In this document: one piece after another, positions 4,731-19,601 of the stretch
Numbering within the stretch: the first letter of the stretch is position 1
Layout of the letters: the number at the start of each line of letters is the position of its first letter
IMG/VR virus record: IMGVR_UViG_2529293139_000005
From: a virus
Lineage: Duplodnaviria > Heunggongvirae > Uroviricota > Caudoviricetes
Length of the DNA: 19,601 nt
Reading direction: 5' to 3' (one strand)
The notes under the pieces: generated by a model
What the model saw: the letters and a program-made list of their open reading frames with translations, nothing else
What the model was told of the DNA's origin: nothing
Databases searched by the model: none
Translations under genes and position numbers: made by a program

Positions 4731-4894
4731 TAGATCTTAAAGTATTTATCTTTTAGAGATGTAGATGCAAAATTTTTTGCCTTTGAAAATTTTTTGTCAT
4801 CAGAAGAGCTTATGAACTCATCTTTTTTGTAGGGAACCGCTAATGCTGCATCACGTCTGCGAGGCAGCTTACTTACTTCCTCGCACTTTTTCAT
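4730..4894 (-). CDS. Small basic protein (54 aa, MKKCEEVSKLPRRRDAALAVPYKKDEFISSSDDKKFSKAKNFASTSLKDKYFKI); third gene of the kinase cassette; absent from the supplied ORF track
   Basis: Hand translation of the minus strand; ATG 4894..4892 lies 2 nt after the kinase TGA (4899..4897) with AAGGA 8 nt upstream; TAG stop overlaps the terminator stem. Confidence 0.4.
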   Translation of the reverse strand: MKKCEEVSKLPRRRDAALAVPYKKDEFISSSDDKKFSKAKNFASTSLKDKYFKI

Positions 4895-4896
4895 GA

Positions 4897-5943
4897 TCAG
4901 TTATCCTTTAATAACCTATACAGTTTTGTAGGGGTACATCCTGAGGATATTGTTAAGTTCGTAGCACGCCTTTTCCGCCCACCATCGTATAAACGAAAAC
5001 CAGTAGTAGACGAATTTTCTGCGTCAAAAACTATAGACAGTATAACGTCCCCAGACTTTTTTTGCCATTCATATGTGCCGTTAGTTGGTTTTGTCATCTG
5101 TAGACGCCAGTCAAGAACGCCATCACTTATAGCTGAGAGATCGTTTAGTACGTCTAGTACGGATTGATATCTTTCATTTGGATCTACATGAATGCATTTG
5201 TTTACTATTGTTATCAATTTTTTATGTATGTGGGAAGGATACTCTTTTAATGGATAGGAGCCATTAATTATCGACTCTCTGAGTTGTTCAATCGTTCTAA
5301 ATGCAGATCTTTCTCTTTCAAAATTATCATATCCAACACACATTCTATATATGGTTAATCCTGCCTGATATATGTCATATGTGAAATTATAATCATTTGT
5401 TGATAAAGAAAAATATTCCGGTGGCACATGAAAATGATATCCAAACTCAGGCGCAGCTCTCGATTCCTCATTGACTAACTGAGACAATCCAAAGTCAGAT
5501 AGCATGGCCTCATTTCTGTTTGATATCATGATGTTATTAGGTTTTATATCAAAATGCATAAGACCTTTTGAGTGTATATGATAAAGCCCACTTAAAAATT
5601 GAATAGAATACCGTATTATCTCCCTGCTCGTAAGATTAATCTTTTTTATTAATTGGTTTAGCGAACCATTATGATAAAATGGCATGGCTATATAGATATT
5701 GCTCTCACATTGAGCAGCATACTGAACTTGCACAATATTTGGATGTGCATGTTTATAGAGAAGCCTTGCTTCATTAAAGTAGTCGTCGTGGTTAGTGTTT
5801 TCTTTTTTTTCTATTTCTTTAATCACCAAGTCATGAGCTAGGTGTCTGTCATGAGCCAGATATACTTTTGAAAAACAACCCTGTTCTTCTAGATCACGAA
5901 TCCATTCGAATGCTACATCAGCTCTTTTGTATGGAGTCAGCAT
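4897..5943 (-). CDS. Hanks-type (eukaryotic-like) Ser/Thr protein kinase, 348 aa, with C-terminal extension of unknown function
   Basis: Kinase motifs in order: LVIKE (beta3 Lys), HFDIKPNN (catalytic loop, non-RD), SDFGLS (DFG), PPEY (APE-like); strong GGAGG RBS; AT-rich relative to neighbours. Confidence 0.85.
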   Translation of the reverse strand: MLTPYKRADVAFEWIRDLEEQGCFSKVYLAHDRHLAHDLVIKEIEKKENTNHDDYFNEARLLYKHAHPNIVQVQYAAQCESNIYIAMPFYHNGSLNQLIKKINLTSREIIRYSIQFLSGLYHIHSKGLMHFDIKPNNIMISNRNEAMLSDFGLSQLVNEESRAAPEFGYHFHVPPEYFSLSTNDYNFTYDIYQAGLTIYRMCVGYDNFERERSAFRTIEQLRESIINGSYPLKEYPSHIHKKLITIVNKCIHVDPNERYQSVLDVLNDLSAISDGVLDWRLQMTKPTNGTYEWQKKSGDVILSIVFDAENSSTTGFRLYDGGRKRRATNLTISSGCTPTKLYRLLKDN

Positions 5944-10159: not shown

Positions 10160-10492
10160 ATGAACCCTTATATTTATCTTGGTGGTGCAATACTTGCAGA
10201 GGTCATTGGTACAACCTTAATGAAGTTTTCAGAAGGTTTTACACGGTTATGGCCATCTGTTGGTACAATTATTTGTTATTGTGCATCATTCTGGTTATTA
10301 GCTCAGACGCTGGCTTATATTCCTACAGGGATTGCTTATGCTATCTGGTCAGGAGTCGGTATTGTCCTGATTAGCTTACTGTCATGGGGACTTTTCGGCC
10401 AACGGCTGGACCTGCCAGCCATTATAGGCATGATGTTGATTTGTGCCGGTGTGTTGGTTATTAATTTATTGTCACGAAGCACACCACATTAA
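10160..10492 (+). CDS. emrE: Small multidrug resistance efflux transporter EmrE (110 aa)
   Basis: MNPYIYLGGAILAEVIGTTLMKFSEGFTRLWPSVGTIICYCASFWLLAQTLAYIPTGIAYAIWSGVGIVLISLLSWG... matches E. coli EmrE from memory; AGGAAAG RBS. Confidence 0.95.
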   Translation: MNPYIYLGGAILAEVIGTTLMKFSEGFTRLWPSVGTIICYCASFWLLAQTLAYIPTGIAYAIWSGVGIVLISLLSWGLFGQRLDLPAIIGMMLICAGVLVINLLSRSTPH

Positions 10493-10748: not shown

Positions 10749-12275
10749 ATGAAAAAAGCCATAGCATATATGCGATTTTCATCACCAGGTCAGATGTCTG
10801 GCGACTCATTAAACCGACAGAGAAGACTTATTGCTGAATGGTTAAAGGTAAATAGTGATTATTATCTTGATACCATAACATATGAAGATTTAGGATTAAG
10901 TGCATTCAAAGGAAAGCATGCACAATCAGGAGCTTTTTCGGAATTTTTAGATGCTATAGAGCATGGTTATATATTGCCAGGAACTACATTGTTAGTTGAA
11001 AGTCTGGACAGACTTTCAAGAGAAAAAGTCGGTGAAGCGATTGAACGTCTGAAATTGATTTTGAATCACGGTATTGATGTTATAACTCTTTGCGACAATA
11101 CAGTCTATAATATTGACTCTTTGAATGAGCCATATTCATTAATAAAAGCCATACTTATAGCACAAAGGGCAAATGAAGAAAGCGAGATAAAGTCAAGTCG
11201 GGTTAAATTATCATGGAAGAAAAAACGGCAGGATGCACTGGAATCAGGTACGATTATGACGGCGTCTTGTCCGAGATGGCTCTCCTTAGATGACAAAAGA
11301 ACGGCTTTTGTTCCAGACCCCGACAGGGTGAAAACTATTGAGCTAATTTTTAAACTCAGGATGGAAAGGCGCTCATTGAATGCAATAGCCAAGTATTTAA
11401 ATGATCATGCTGTAAAGAATTTCTCAGGAAAAGAAAGTGCATGGGGACCTTCTGTAATTGAAAAATTATTAGCGAATAAAGCTCTGATAGGTATATGCGT
11501 ACCTTCATATCGTGCAAGAGGTAAAGGAATAAGTGAAATCGCTGGCTATTATCCCAGAGTCATATCAGATGATTTGTTTTACGCTGTACAGGAAATTCGG
11601 TTGGCACCTTTTGGTATTAGCAATAGTAGCAAAAATCCTATGTTGATAAATCTACTTCGAACAGTTATGAAGTGCGAGGCTTGTGGTAATACCATGATTG
11701 TTCATGCGGTATCTGGAAGTTTGCATGGCTATTATGTTTGTCCGATGAGAAGACTGCATCGATGTGACAGGCCATCAATAAAGAGAGATTTGGTTGATTA
11801 TAATATCATTAATGAGTTGCTTTTTAATTGTAGTAAAATCCAACCAGTTGAAAACAAGAAAGATGCTAATGAAACTTTAGAGTTGAAAATTATTGAGCTC
11901 CAGATGAAAATTAATAATTTAATTGCTGCATTATCTGTTGCGCCTGAAGTTACCGCTATAGCAGAAAAAATCAGAGTATTAGATAAGGAATTACGAAGGG
12001 CTTCTGTATCATTAAAAACTTTGAAGAGTAAAGCGGTGAGTTCACTTGGTGATTTTCATGCTATTGACTTAACCAGTAAAAATGGGCGAGAGCTATGTCG
12101 TACACTTGCCTATAAAACATTCGAAAAAATCATAATCAATACAGATAATAAAACCTGTGATATCTATTTTATGAATGGCATTGTTTTTAAACACTATCCT
12201 TTAATGAAAACAATATCCGCCCAGCAGGCGATAAGTACTCTCAAATATATGGTTGATGGTGAGGTTTATTTTTGA
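10749..12275 (+). CDS. ybcK: Large serine recombinase (508 aa), YbcK-like
   Basis: N-terminal resolvase-type catalytic region AIAYMRFSSPGQ (Ser), large central domain, Cys cluster CEACGN...CPMRRLHRC (zinc ribbon), coiled-coil C-terminus; AT-rich gene downstream of emrE as in DLP12. Confidence 0.85.
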   Translation: MKKAIAYMRFSSPGQMSGDSLNRQRRLIAEWLKVNSDYYLDTITYEDLGLSAFKGKHAQSGAFSEFLDAIEHGYILPGTTLLVESLDRLSREKVGEAIERLKLILNHGIDVITLCDNTVYNIDSLNEPYSLIKAILIAQRANEESEIKSSRVKLSWKKKRQDALESGTIMTASCPRWLSLDDKRTAFVPDPDRVKTIELIFKLRMERRSLNAIAKYLNDHAVKNFSGKESAWGPSVIEKLLANKALIGICVPSYRARGKGISEIAGYYPRVISDDLFYAVQEIRLAPFGISNSSKNPMLINLLRTVMKCEACGNTMIVHAVSGSLHGYYVCPMRRLHRCDRPSIKRDLVDYNIINELLFNCSKIQPVENKKDANETLELKIIELQMKINNLIAALSVAPEVTAIAEKIRVLDKELRRASVSLKTLKSKAVSSLGDFHAIDLTSKNGRELCRTLAYKTFEKIIINTDNKTCDIYFMNGIVFKHYPLMKTISAQQAISTLKYMVDGEVYF

Positions 12276-14341: not shown

Positions 14342-14624
14342 TTTGAGAAAAGCAGCGCGTAGTCGGGAATGCCAGGTAAGAATCCCTGGCGTATGTAATG
14401 GTAACCCTGAAACGTCTGTACTGGCACATATCCGGCTGACTGGATTGTGCGGCACCGGTACCAAACCGCCAGACCTGATTGCCACCATTGCATGTTCTGC
14501 CTGCCACGACGAAATCGACCGCCGCACACATTTTGTCGATGCTGCATATGCAAAAGAATGCGCGCTGGAAGGTATGGCGAGAACACAGGTTATCTGGCTG
14601 AAAGAGGGGGTTATTAAGGCGTGA
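14334..14624 (+). CDS. ybcO: YbcO-like nin-region protein (96 aa), Cys/His-rich
   Basis: [67 protein letters not shown]; AAGGAGG RBS 14323..14329. Confidence 0.85.
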
Positions 14625-14983: not shown

Positions 14984-15120
14984 TGTTTGAGTTTTATATG
15001 GCAGAACGTCTTCGCCACCGCTGGGGGCGTCTGCGCTTATATCGTTTCCCCGGTTCTGTTTTGACCGATTACCGAATACTGAAGAATTACGCCAAAACCC
15101 TGACAGGAGCAGGAGTATGA
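14980..15120 (+). CDS. ylcG: YlcG-like small protein (46 aa); absent from the supplied ORF track
   Basis: Hand translation [46 protein letters not shown]; ATG overlaps the rusA TGA. Confidence 0.6.
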
Positions 15121-15205
15121 AGTCAGAGATAACAATCAACTAATACTGTTTCGTTGATTTTTGCTTGTAATTGGCGTTCTGGTCTGATTTTTGTGGAGTA
15201 AGTTG

Positions 15206-15505
15206 ATGCGTGATATTCAGATGGTTCTTGAGCGTTGGGGAGCGTGGGCGGCTAATAATCATGAAGATGTGACCTGGTCGTCCATTGCCGCCGGTTTTAA
15301 GGGATTAATTACTTCAAAAGTAAAATCTCGCCCGCAATGTTGTGACGATGACGCGATGATCATTTGCGGGTGCATGGCCCGTCTGAAAAAGAACAACAGC
15401 GATTTGCACGATTTATTAGTAGATTATTATGTAGTCGGTATGACATTCATGTCACTGGCAGGTAAGCATTGCTGCTCTGATGGTTATATCGGGAAAAGGT
15501 TATAG
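15206..15505 (+). CDS. quuD: Late antiterminator Q (QuuD/phage-82 type), closed after 99 codons by in-frame TAG; frame stays open to TAA 15587..15589
   Basis: GGAG RBS 15195..15198; [99 protein letters not shown] then TAG 15503..15505, followed in frame by KAEGIIEGMLMALDIRLEMDIVVNNSN. Confidence 0.8.
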
Positions 15506-15589
15506 AAGGCTGAGGGCATAATTGAAGGGATGTTAATGGCATTAGATATCCGGTTAGAGATGGATATCGTTGTTAATAACTCTAATTAA

Positions 15590-15760
15590 TATGCCAATTG
15601 TTTATTAAAAATGGGGCGTTGAGACGCCCCCAAAAATAAAGGGTAATATATAACAGAAGGTTTATATAGTTAGAAGCAAGGTTGTGCTTCTAAAGGAAGT
15701 GGCTTGAGGGAGCCACTTATATGTTGGGGAGGCAACGCCTCCCGCAACATATCTTTTTCG
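15590..15760 (+). promoter_or_regulatory. Putative late promoter / Q-utilisation region with hairpins and a terminator-like element (hairpin 15721..15750 followed by T-run)
   Basis: Directly after Q as in lambdoid phages; hairpins GGGGCG-ttgaga-CGCCCC and ATGTTGGGGAGGC-aac-GCCTCCCGCAACAT followed by ATCTTTTT; promoter hexamers not assigned. Confidence 0.4.
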
Positions 15761-15768
15761 TAATCAGA

Positions 15769-16866
15769 TTAGAACTGGTAAACCAGACCTACAGCAACGA
15801 TGTCATCAGTGCTTACACTGAGTGCTTTAGTGAAGTCATTTTTGTCAAGCAGGTTGATTTTGTAATCAACGAAAGTAGACATATTTTTGTTGAAGTAATA
15901 GGTTGCACCTACATCAACATATTTGACTAAGTCCTGATCGCCCCATACTCCAAGATCCTTACCTTTAGATTGCAGGTAAGCAACGGACGGACGCAGACCG
16001 AAATCGAACTGATATTGTGCAACAGCTTCGAAGTTTTGGGCTTTATTAGCAACGAAGTGATCAGCAAATACAGTCATATTCTGGGTTTCAGAATAGGTAG
16101 TGGCCAGGTAAATGTTGTTAGCGTCATATTTCAGACCTGCGGCCCAAACTTCTGCATTTTTACCGGAAGCAAATACTTCAGGAAGAACTTTCCCTGCATT
16201 AACTTGAGTGTCGGTACGATCAGATTTCGCATAAGTTGCACCGATACCGAATCCTTCGTATTCATAGGTAGCAGAGAAACCGAAGCCATCACCGTTACCT
16301 TCAGTGTAGTTATCGAAATCGCTACGATCGTTTTTGCCTTGGTACTGAGCAGCAAAATTCAGACCATCAACCAGACCAAAGAAGTCGTTGTTACGATAGG
16401 TTGCAACACCTGTGGTGCGACCAGTCATGAATACATCTGTTTGGGTCCAGGTATCGCCACCGAATTCTGGCAGAACGTCGGTCCATGCACCAATATCGTA
16501 TGCTACACCGTAGTTACGGCCATAATCGATGGAGCCGTAGTCACCGAATTTCAGGCCAGCGAAGGCAAGACGGGTTTTATCTTTGGAGGAACCTTGAGAT
16601 TCAGCGCGGTTGCCTTTGAATTCATATTCCCACTGACCGAAACCAGTCAGTTGATCGTTGATTTGGGTTTCACCTTTGAAGCCAAGACGGGCATAAGTAG
16701 TATCACCATCATCTGCATCATTAGAGGAGAAGTAGTGCTTAGCATTAACTTTCCCGTACAGATCCAGCTTGTTACTGTCTTTATTATAAATTTCAGCTGC
16801 CTGAGCAGACATCGCCATCAGTACTGATGCAGCTACAGCAGAAATTGCCACTGTTAATTTTTTCAT
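15769..16866 (-). CDS. nmpC: Outer-membrane general porin NmpC/OmpC family (365 aa precursor from [23 protein letters not shown])
   Basis: Signal peptide then [24 protein letters not shown]..., C-terminal VGLVYQF typical of enterobacterial porins; the ORF-track start at 16926 is upstream of the signal-peptide Met. Confidence 0.9.
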
Positions 16867-17292
16867 CGTGAGCCCTTTTTTTGAACTATTATTAAAAAAT
16901 GATGTCACTGCGCGATAAATATTCATCTAATCAATGTGATTATTTCAAGATGTAAGTTTTGGTTTCTCATTTGATTTGTGAAGTAGATCTCTATTTTTAT
17001 CTGAACTTTTTCTATCGAATCCTATTTATGGCTCTTATTTGAACAAAAATAAACCTATTAGCTAATTTATATTAATGGCTGTTATTTATGGGGGTTCTAT
17101 AATTCGGCAGTTTAATTTAAATCAACTAAAAATAACGTCTGAAATTATTTATTGGTTATTTGTTGAGGTTTTCTTATGTATTTGTGGTGGTGTTTTGAAC
17201 ACTCGGTAGCATTCTCATAAATATCATTCAGTGGTTTACGTACGTAAAAAATTGGTTATGCTGTTAAGAGTGGTTACTTCGTCACACAGCTT

Positions 17293-17325
17293 AAACCCGC
17301 CGTCGAGCGGGTTTTTCCATTTTTT
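17293..17325 (+). terminator. Rho-independent terminator upstream of the lysis cassette
   Basis: AAACCCGC-cgtcga-GCGGGTTT followed by TTCCATTTTTT on the plus strand. Confidence 0.5.
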
Positions 17326-17437
17326 GAGTCTCGATATTAGCTGATAACCCAATACCTGAGTTATTCACTGACTCCGAGTCTGTTACGTTTCGTAGTATTC
17401 CCTCAATTTACACCCGCTTTGTCTGCGAGGTGGGGTT

Positions 17438-17653
17438 ATGAAATCCATGGATAAGTTAACAACGGGTGTCGCCTATGGCACCTCAGCAGGTAGTGCCGGG
17501 TACTGGTTTTTACAGCTGCTAGATAAAGTCACGCCCTCACAGTGGGCGGCAATTGGAGTGCTGGGTAGCCTGGTATTTGGCCTGCTGACGTACCTGACAA
17601 ACCTTTATTTCAAGATTAAAGAAGATAAGCGCAAGGCTGCGAGAGGTGAATAA
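17438..17653 (+). CDS. essD: Class II holin (pinholin, phage-21 S type), 71 aa with dual-start motif MKSM
   Basis: [71 protein letters not shown]; two hydrophobic segments and charged C-terminus. Confidence 0.9.
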
Positions 17654-18150
17654 TGCCTCCATCATTACGAAAAGCCGTTGCTGCTGCTATTGGTGGCGGA
17701 GCAATTGCTATAGCATCAGTGTTAATCACTGGCCCAAGTGGTAACGATGGTCTGGAAGGTGTCAGCTACATACCATACAAAGATATTGTTGGTGTATGGA
17801 CTGTATGTCACGGGCATACAGGAAAAGACATCATGCTCGGTAAAACGTATACCAAAGCAGAATGCAAAGCCCTCCTGAATAAAGACCTTGCCACGGTCGC
17901 CAGACAAATTAACCCGTACATAAAAGTTGATATACCGGAAACAACGCGCGGCGCTCTTTACTTGTTCGTTTACAACGTGGGCGCTGGCAATTTCAGAACA
18001 TCGACGCTTCTTCGCAAAATAAACCAGGGCGATATCAAAGGCGCATGTGATCAGCTACGTCGCTGGACATATGCTGGCGGTAAGCAATGGAAAGGTCTCA
18101 TGACTCGTCGTGAGATTGAGCGTGAAATCTGTTTGTGGGGTCAGCAATGA
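17653..18150 (+). CDS. rrrD: Phage lysozyme (endolysin) with N-terminal signal-anchor-release type segment, 165 aa
   Basis: N-terminal Gly/Ala-rich weakly hydrophobic segment [20 protein letters not shown] followed by a lysozyme-like domain; start overlaps holin stop. Confidence 0.9.
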
Positions 18151-18608
18151 ACAGATTAACCTCGATTATCTCCGCTCTGTTCATCTGCATCATCGTCTGC
18201 CTGTCATGGGCTGTTAATCATTACCGTGATAACGCCATTACCTACAAAGCCCAGCGCGACAAAAATGCCAGAGAACTGAAGCTGGCGAACGTGGCAATTA
18301 CTGACATGCAGATGCGTCAGCGTGATGTTGCTGCGCTCGATGCAAAATACACGAAGGAGTTAGCTGATGCGAAAGCTGAAAATGATGCTCTGCGTGATGA
18401 TGTTGCCGCTGGTCGTCGTCGGTTGCACATCAAAGCAGTCTGTCAGTCAGTGCGTGAAGCCACCACCGCCTCCGGCGTGGATAATGCAGCCTCCCCCCGA
18501 CTGGCAGACACCGCTGAACGGGATTATTTCACCCTCAGAGAGAGGCTGATCACTATGCAAAAACAACTGGAAGGAACCCAGAAGTATATTAATGAGCAGT
18601 GCAGATAG
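18147..18608 (+). CDS. rzpD: Spanin inner-membrane subunit Rz (153 aa from [14 protein letters not shown])
   Basis: N-terminal TM segment then coiled-coil-rich periplasmic domain; ATGA overlap with endolysin stop. Confidence 0.85.
18367..18549 (+). CDS. rzoD: Spanin outer-membrane lipoprotein Rz1 (60 aa) embedded in Rz in the +1 frame
   Basis: [60 protein letters not shown]: lipobox VVVGC and proline-rich body; matches lambda Rz1 from memory. Confidence 0.8.
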
Positions 18609-19175: not shown

Positions 19176-19601
19176 GGTAATGACTCCAACTTATTGATAG
19201 TGTTTTATGTTCAGATAATGCCCGATGACTTTGTCATGCAGCTCCACCGATTTTGAGAACGACAGCGACTTCCGTCCCAGCCGTGCCAGGTGCTGCCTCA
19301 GATTCAGGTTATGCCGCTCAATTCGCTGCGTATATCGCTTGCTGATTACGTGCAGCTTTCCCTTCAGGCGGGATTCATACAGCGGCCAGCCATCCGTCAT
19401 CCATATCACCACGTCAAAGGGTGACAGCAGGCTCATAAGACGCCCCAGCGTCGCCATAGTGCGTTCACCGAATACGTGCGCAACAACCGTCTTCCGGAGC
19501 CTGTCATACGCGTAAAACAGCCAGCGCTGGCGCGATTTAGCCCCGACGTATCCCCACTGTTCGTCCATTTCCGCGCAGACGATGACGTCACTGCCCGGCT
19601 G
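19176..19601 (-). mobile_element. IS1 insertion sequence, partial (one terminal inverted repeat plus insB; element runs off the window end)
   Basis: GGTAATGACTCCAACTTATTGATAGTGTTTTATGTTCAGATAATGCCCGATGAC at 19176 onward is the reverse complement of an IS1 end; the downstream sequence encodes InsB on the minus strand. Confidence 0.9.
19191..19601 (-). CDS. insB: IS1 transposase InsB reading frame (5' part lies beyond the window)
   Basis: ORF 19191..19568(-): [125 protein letters not shown] matches IS1 InsB. Confidence 0.9.

Follow-up and report, generated by a model that had tools for sequence, protein, structure and literature searches.

The late antiterminator gene quuD of a DLP12-like defective prophage in Escherichia coli E1520 is interrupted at codon 100 by an amber triplet in place of a glutamine codon. 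We consider it very probable that this is a genuine, recent mutation private to one strain, and that Q function, and hence Q-dependent expression of the lysis genes, has been lost or reduced. The gene lies in a 19,601-nt stretch of DNA (hereafter the window) from the IMG/VR record IMGVR_UViG_2529293139_000005; its features are collected in Table 1. The lesion is an ordinary nonsense mutation, recent and isolated, that involves no new mechanism; both the gene and this kind of cryptic prophage are known, and public records already contain the mutation.

Table 1. Features in and around quuD in the window, with the basis of each assignment.
Feature	Coordinates	Strand	Basis
quuD reading frame, 127 codons and stop, now a pseudogene; late antiterminator of the Q21 family in a DLP12-like prophage	15206..15589	+	translation, identity to WP_001204791.1, PF06530
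Translatable ORF, 99 codons and TAG; database entry EGB34760.1, titled 'phage antitermination protein Q [E. coli E1520]'	15206..15505	+	ORF translation, protein record
Amber TAG at codon 100; T15503 in place of the C of CAG (Gln100)	15503..15505	+	comparison with intact alleles
27 orphaned codons, QuuD residues 101-127, undecayed	15506..15586	+	identity to wild type; conserved among homologues; model helix 92-123
GC-rich hairpin just past the end of quuD; intrinsic terminator by score, with a ATTTTTAATA tail, possibly for the porin transcript	15613..15630	-	terminator scan
Three consecutive RNA hairpins (15670-15693, 15697-15718, 15719-15752), with CTTTTT after the third; candidate tR'-like terminator, the first of the late region	15670..15758	+	folding
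Second terminator-like hairpin with a T-run, 5′ of essD	17293..17314	+	terminator scan
Lysis cassette essD (17438-17653), rrrD (17653-18150), rzpD (18147-18608); presumptive targets of Q, the only ones left	17438..18608	+	intact ORFs of 71, 165 and 153 aa

Translation of the window bore out the first-pass annotation, in which a Q-like reading frame stops at a TAG after 99 codons and the same frame then runs on to a TAA. Beyond the TAG, 27 in-frame sense codons (KAEGIIEGMLMALDIRLEMDIVVNNSN), rather than the 28 originally counted, lead to the TAA at 15587-15589, such that 99 codons, the TAG and 27 codons add up to 127. The start codon and ribosome-binding site are retained, with GGAG located 8 nt 5′ of the ATG at 15206. 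The first-pass annotation gave 127 codons as the length of DLP12 QuuD, and this agrees with RefSeq QuuD (WP_001204791.1; 127 aa, 384-nt CDS). Every residue except codon 100 is that of K-12 QuuD, and the 27 codons past the stop match its residues 101-127 at 100% identity. Over the 601 bases from 15100 to 15700, the sole mismatch to strains LH09-a and STK77-E is T15503 in place of C, which turns CAG (Gln100) into TAG. Because the downstream codons are fully identical to QuuD and this is the only mismatch in the region, the frame past the TAG is not a chance one; the stop arises from one base that differs from intact alleles, and the frame beyond it persists. A Dcm deamination hot spot (CCWGG) was considered as the cause of the change and rejected, as the wild-type context, TTACAGAAG, contains no Dcm site.

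Homologous proteins do not naturally end at this position. The 120 best database homologues range from 115 to 217 aa, and none ends near residue 99. We aligned 16 diverse full-length homologues from Escherichia, Salmonella, Enterobacter, Citrobacter and Trabulsiella (75-89% identity, 123-137 aa), of which 15 have Gln at position 100 and one has Tyr. Since homologues run past position 100 and the downstream codons are those of QuuD 101-127, we read the TAG as a CAG-to-TAG nonsense mutation that truncates Q, as had been proposed. By this alignment conservation is strong in the segment that is lost (residues 100-127): A102, E103, G104, G108, M109, L110, M111, L113 and L117 are invariant in the 16 homologues, E118, M119 and D120 are nearly so, and variation is confined to the tail past residue 120.

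Q82 and QuuD had been treated as one kind of protein, which did not hold, although the main point is unaffected. Among Pfam families, PF06530 (the Q21 family) alone was reported at E ≤ 0.01 for the truncated and the read-through protein, with no match to PF06323 (the Q82 family); an NCBIfam search likewise returned no match. PF06530 scored 150 bits with the 99-aa product and 179 bits with the 127-aa read-through (E = 3.5e-53 for the latter), compared to a gathering score of 26. The profile extends to position 118, of which the 99-aa product covers positions 1-99 only, and on this evidence we classify that product as a pseudogene of the PF06530 family and not as a working member. QuuD also matched Q21 itself, by phmmer (E = 7.6e-7) and by profile (E = 2.8e-9, QuuD 8-86 to Q21 20-99), and hhalign gave a probability of 96.9% for QuuD against the Q21-type protein of Stx2c phage 1717. 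The solved structures found by sequence were of Q21 only (PDB 6JNX, 6P18 and related entries). The PF06530 (Q21) and PF06323 (Q82) families have been described as without obvious sequence similarity (PMC9388147). Given the PF06530-only match, the matches to Q21 and the family assignment in PMC9388147, QuuD is by sequence a protein of the Q21/Q933W family and not of the Q82 family, and it should be annotated with the former. The gene order, rusA-ylcG-quuD-(porin)-essD-rrrD-rzpD, is that expected of the Q family in a lambdoid (pro)phage, between the nin/rusA region and the late promoter and lysis genes, and the full-length protein is found in plaque-forming phages (100% identical in PhiR34_1, 99% in Kati).

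We used an AlphaFold (AF2) model of QuuD to consider what the truncation removes. The model is of mediocre quality, with a mean pLDDT of 58.7 and values of 72-84 over residues 61-110, and places a helix at residues 81-88, then a short turn and a long helix at 92-123. The best Foldseek matches were the -35-binding region 4 domains of ECF sigma factors (2H27, 3HUG, 2O8X), together with Q21, at weak E-values of 0.03-0.3 (0.03-0.2 for the sigma domains); the three sigma domains superpose at an rmsd of 1.3-1.8 Å over about 60 residues. Likeness to sigma region 4 is a relationship published for Q21, which reads the Q-binding element (QBE) in the major groove with helix two of a helix-turn[loop]-helix, shapes its N-terminal H1-H3 region into a torus within the RNA-exit channel, and touches RNA polymerase (RNAP) through its last six residues (bioRxiv 10.1101/651190). 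Loading of Q21 onto RNAP needs QBE binding through that second helix (bioRxiv 10.1101/651190). By analogy, helix 92-123 seems to be the one that reads DNA in a helix-turn-helix resembling that of sigma region 4. The phmmer, profile and hhalign alignments all end at about QuuD 86/Q21 99, so codon 100 is placed in the recognition helix through the model and the Foldseek matches. A BLASTP alignment that extends to residue 126 was not used, as it is ungapped and ignores the Q21 loop insertion.

On this placement, translation would end after residue 99, at a point where about 8 of the 32 residues of the DNA-reading helix have been made. The fragment would keep the N-terminal part, which is torus-forming in Q21, and the opening helix of the DNA-binding helix-turn-helix, and would lose about 24 residues of the final helix together with the C-terminal tail. 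Judged from the model and from Q21, the 99-residue product should not bind the Q DNA site.

The retained part raises the alternative that the 99-residue protein is still active or has a new role, for instance as a fragment that still binds RNAP but not DNA and interferes with Q in superinfecting phages of the same type. The fragment does keep the part homologous to Q21 20-99, including the torus-forming and RNAP-dock-contacting helices, and it keeps its start codon and ribosome-binding site. We nevertheless regard this as very unlikely: no natural homologue is so short, the lost residues are among the most conserved, Q21 depends on QBE binding by the second helix to load onto RNAP, and the allele is confined to one strain. 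Loss of most of a core helix would also usually destabilize a small helical domain. A further reading, in which QuuD(1-99) is a domesticated decoy against incoming phages of the same Q type (superinfection defence) or the amber is a read-through-limited throttle on the lysis cassette, we hold to be highly improbable. If true, a decoy that keeps the part binding the RNAP exit channel and dock, and lacks DNA targeting, could block Q-dependent late transcription of incoming phages.

The amber allele is private to one strain. A 601-base query around the gene matched quuD in 3,692 of 5,426 complete E. coli genomes, none at 100% identity; the four best matches were 99.8% identical, and two of these (LH09-a and STK77-E) are the strains compared base by base above. 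The locus of a 59-mer centred on the TAG was found in 2,399 of the 5,426 genomes, all of which carry CAG, with no exact (TAG) copy. Exact-pattern scans of viral contigs, metagenome contigs and GTDB species genomes returned no match for the TAG version. The same patterns with CAG matched at least 120 viral contigs, 89 metagenome contigs and 3 GTDB genomes; the scans were therefore capable of finding the locus. The TAG was seen in only two places: scaffold GL871772.1 of E. coli E1520, to which the window is identical at 14,396/14,396 bases, and a Logan contig of run SRR024130, identical at 4,800/4,800 bases, the TAG being included in both. SRR024130 probably represents reads of the same strain. 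Among the complete wild-type copies recovered in the CAG control scans, 191/194 are intact 127-codon ORFs. Absence of the TAG from all scans and the intactness of these copies indicate that the mutation is strain-private and that quuD is normally kept intact. A literature search on strain E1520 found nothing relevant.

The remaining 3 of the 194 otherwise wild-type copies, from metagenome or viral contigs, are disrupted or divergent, a background disruption of about 1.5%: L061 and L109 have an N-terminal frameshift or mosaic junctions, and in L135 the C-terminus is altered after residue 118. A crude count of synonymous and nonsynonymous changes across quuD copies was set aside, contaminated as it was by three frameshifted alleles. 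An exact-protein look-up (44 blocks) could suggest that the 99-aa form is widespread, a reading we rejected: in 8 of the 10 places shown, the gene runs into a contig end after 297-299 nt, and among these cut genes (L007-L013, L015) three continue with C or CA, as in the wild type. We caution that looking up a protein by its exact length brings up genes cut at contig ends, which pass for truncation alleles and are a trap when counting 'truncated Q' records.

As the allele is found in the data of one strain only, and E1520 is an older draft assembly, we considered that the TAG is a sequencing or assembly error, or a mutation acquired by the sequenced stock during laboratory passage, with natural E1520 carrying CAG. 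The SRR024130 contig, identical over its whole 4.8 kb, may derive from the same read set. On the other hand, two different assemblers gave the same base, and one base is substituted where the sequence (TTATAGAAG) forms no homopolymer, whereas the errors typical of early pyrosequencing are indels; together these make an assembly error unlikely. Among spontaneous mutations of E. coli, GC-to-AT transitions are the most frequent, and the rest of the 14.4 kb, in which the neighbouring ORFs are all intact, carries no sign of poor quality. We thus hold an error or laboratory origin to be improbable.

Full-length Q could still be made if the stop were suppressed, either by a supE-like amber-suppressor tRNA-Gln restoring Gln100 or by efficient programmed read-through. 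Ambers of the CAG-to-TAG type are exactly those at which a suppressor inserting glutamine rebuilds the wild-type protein, E. coli reads through UAG at a low basal level by means of near-cognate tRNA-Gln, and the downstream codons are still perfect. Perfect downstream codons are, however, equally explained by a recent mutation, and suppressor alleles are uncommon in natural isolates. The stop is conserved in no relative (0/2,399 genomes, 0/89 metagenome contigs, 0 of at least 120 viral contigs). Within the window we found no tRNA genes, which argues against a cis-encoded suppressor, and an Rfam search of 15400-17500 returned no match and thus no recoding element around the stop. Programmed read-through is therefore not supported, and suppression in either form is highly improbable. 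A recent nonsense mutation of quuD remains the reading that we favor.

The consequences of losing Q depend on what is left of the prophage. Its early region looks intact (exo, bet, gam, kinase, S24-peptidase repressor, O and P), and ybcN, ninE, ybcO, rusA and ylcG precede quuD. The products of the lysis cassette carry holin, lysozyme and Phage_lysis Pfam domains, and all other annotated genes of the window are full-length ORFs. On the E1520 scaffold, rzpD and bor are followed by IS1, an appY-like gene, ompT, envY, ybcH and nfrA, with no terminase, head or tail genes in the prophage, which is defective. As structural genes are lacking, the lysis genes are the only Q targets left, and 'late gene expression', which the first-pass annotation expected to be impaired, here means the lysis cassette only. 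The DLP12 lysis operon has been reported to be under Q control (Rueggeberg 2013, as cited in PMC7918800). A Q-independent, RpoE-dependent route to expression of the cassette has also been reported, again as cited in PMC7918800, and the phenotype of Q loss may for this reason be mild.

Several features of the prophage stand apart from the quuD stop. IS1 sequences (a PF03400 transposase fragment and InsA) lie directly past bor, at 19191-19568 (minus strand) in the window and at 13986-15158 in L006, and stand in place of the whole packaging, head and tail part, with host-side genes next. The prophage Ser/Thr protein kinase gene (4897-5943, minus strand) is an intact 348-codon ORF and is annotated as frameshifted in KSC207, the closest relative with a complete genome. 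emrE, encoding an SMR efflux pump (10160-10492, plus strand), and ybcK, encoding a large serine recombinase (10749-12275, plus strand), are cargo unrelated to the stop; as in DLP12, the replication genes lie on one side of the pair and the nin region on the other. An intact porin gene of the nmpC/lc type (15769-16866, minus strand; 365 aa from the annotated start) is located antisense between Q and the lysis genes, and any Q-modified transcript must therefore cross it in antisense.

The region past the quuD stop had been described as hairpin-rich, and folding agrees: the three hairpins at 15670-15752 have a predicted energy of -46.7 kcal/mol (z = -6.2 compared to shuffles), and the segment is nearly identical in the active phage PhiR34_1. 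We infer that these hairpins act as a tR'-like terminator. The GC-rich hairpin at 15613-15630 has a terminator score on the minus strand and not on the plus strand; its role may be to terminate porin transcription or to shield quuD from antisense transcription. A consensus scan of the plus strand from 15590 to 15770 found no late promoter, and the sequence TTGAGA-19 nt-TAATAT (15619-15649) can be put forward only as a guess. The more distant QuuD-type phages ev203, P13374 and PhiR12_3 are too divergent for alignment to define PR' or the QBE.

We hypothesize that a Q unable to bind its DNA site could not be loaded onto the paused RNA polymerase of the late promoter. Transcription would in that case end at the putative terminator hairpins past quuD and 5′ of essD, and Q-dependent expression of essD-rrrD-rzpD would be lost or would fall to the level of rare UAG read-through. 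The repressor is apparently intact and SOS-cleavable, and the prophage may still be SOS-inducible. Because an inducible prophage of this kind cannot make virions, losing Q would remove a potentially lethal route from induction to lysis, and the mutation may be neutral or mildly beneficial to the host.

The finding matters mainly for annotation: the 99-aa protein EGB34760.1 is best read as the product of a truncated quuD pseudogene. E1520 is further predicted to lack Q-dependent expression of its DLP12-type lysis cassette, a cassette type linked to biofilm and outer-membrane-vesicle phenotypes (PMC7918800). It offers a small, clean example of how one point mutation can disarm a prophage that is defective but may still be inducible.

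Compared to DLP12 of K-12, the E1520 prophage has the same genes on both sides of quuD, ybcN-ninE-ybcO-rusA-ylcG 5′ and the porin gene and essD-rrrD-rzpD 3′, and 126 of 127 codons specify the same residue as K-12 QuuD (b0551, WP_001204791.1). It differs in codon 100, which is CAG in K-12, in the porin gene, which is interrupted by IS5 in K-12 and intact here, and in keeping an early region and being cut by IS1 after bor. Q21 of phage 21 (PDB 6P18, 6P19, 6P1A, 6JNX) shares the Pfam family PF06530, and the QuuD model suggests that it may share the sigma-region-4-like fold; identity is only about 29%, QuuD is 35 residues shorter, and the long B1-B2 loop insertion of Q21 (residues 105-121) appears to be absent from QuuD. 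The Q proteins of Stx phages (933W/P13374 type) are closer, at about 78-81% identity over 126 residues, and occupy the same place before the late promoter. Those phages, however, are intact, can be induced and use Q to drive stx and the lysis genes, whereas the truncated Q of E1520 drives at most the lysis cassette. The family of lambda Q is PF03589, which we take to be unrelated to that of QuuD. Amber mutants of lambda gene Q (e.g., Qam73) abolish late transcription unless the host has an amber suppressor; they are laboratory-selected alleles in a viable phage, whereas the E1520 amber is a spontaneous lesion in a defective prophage.
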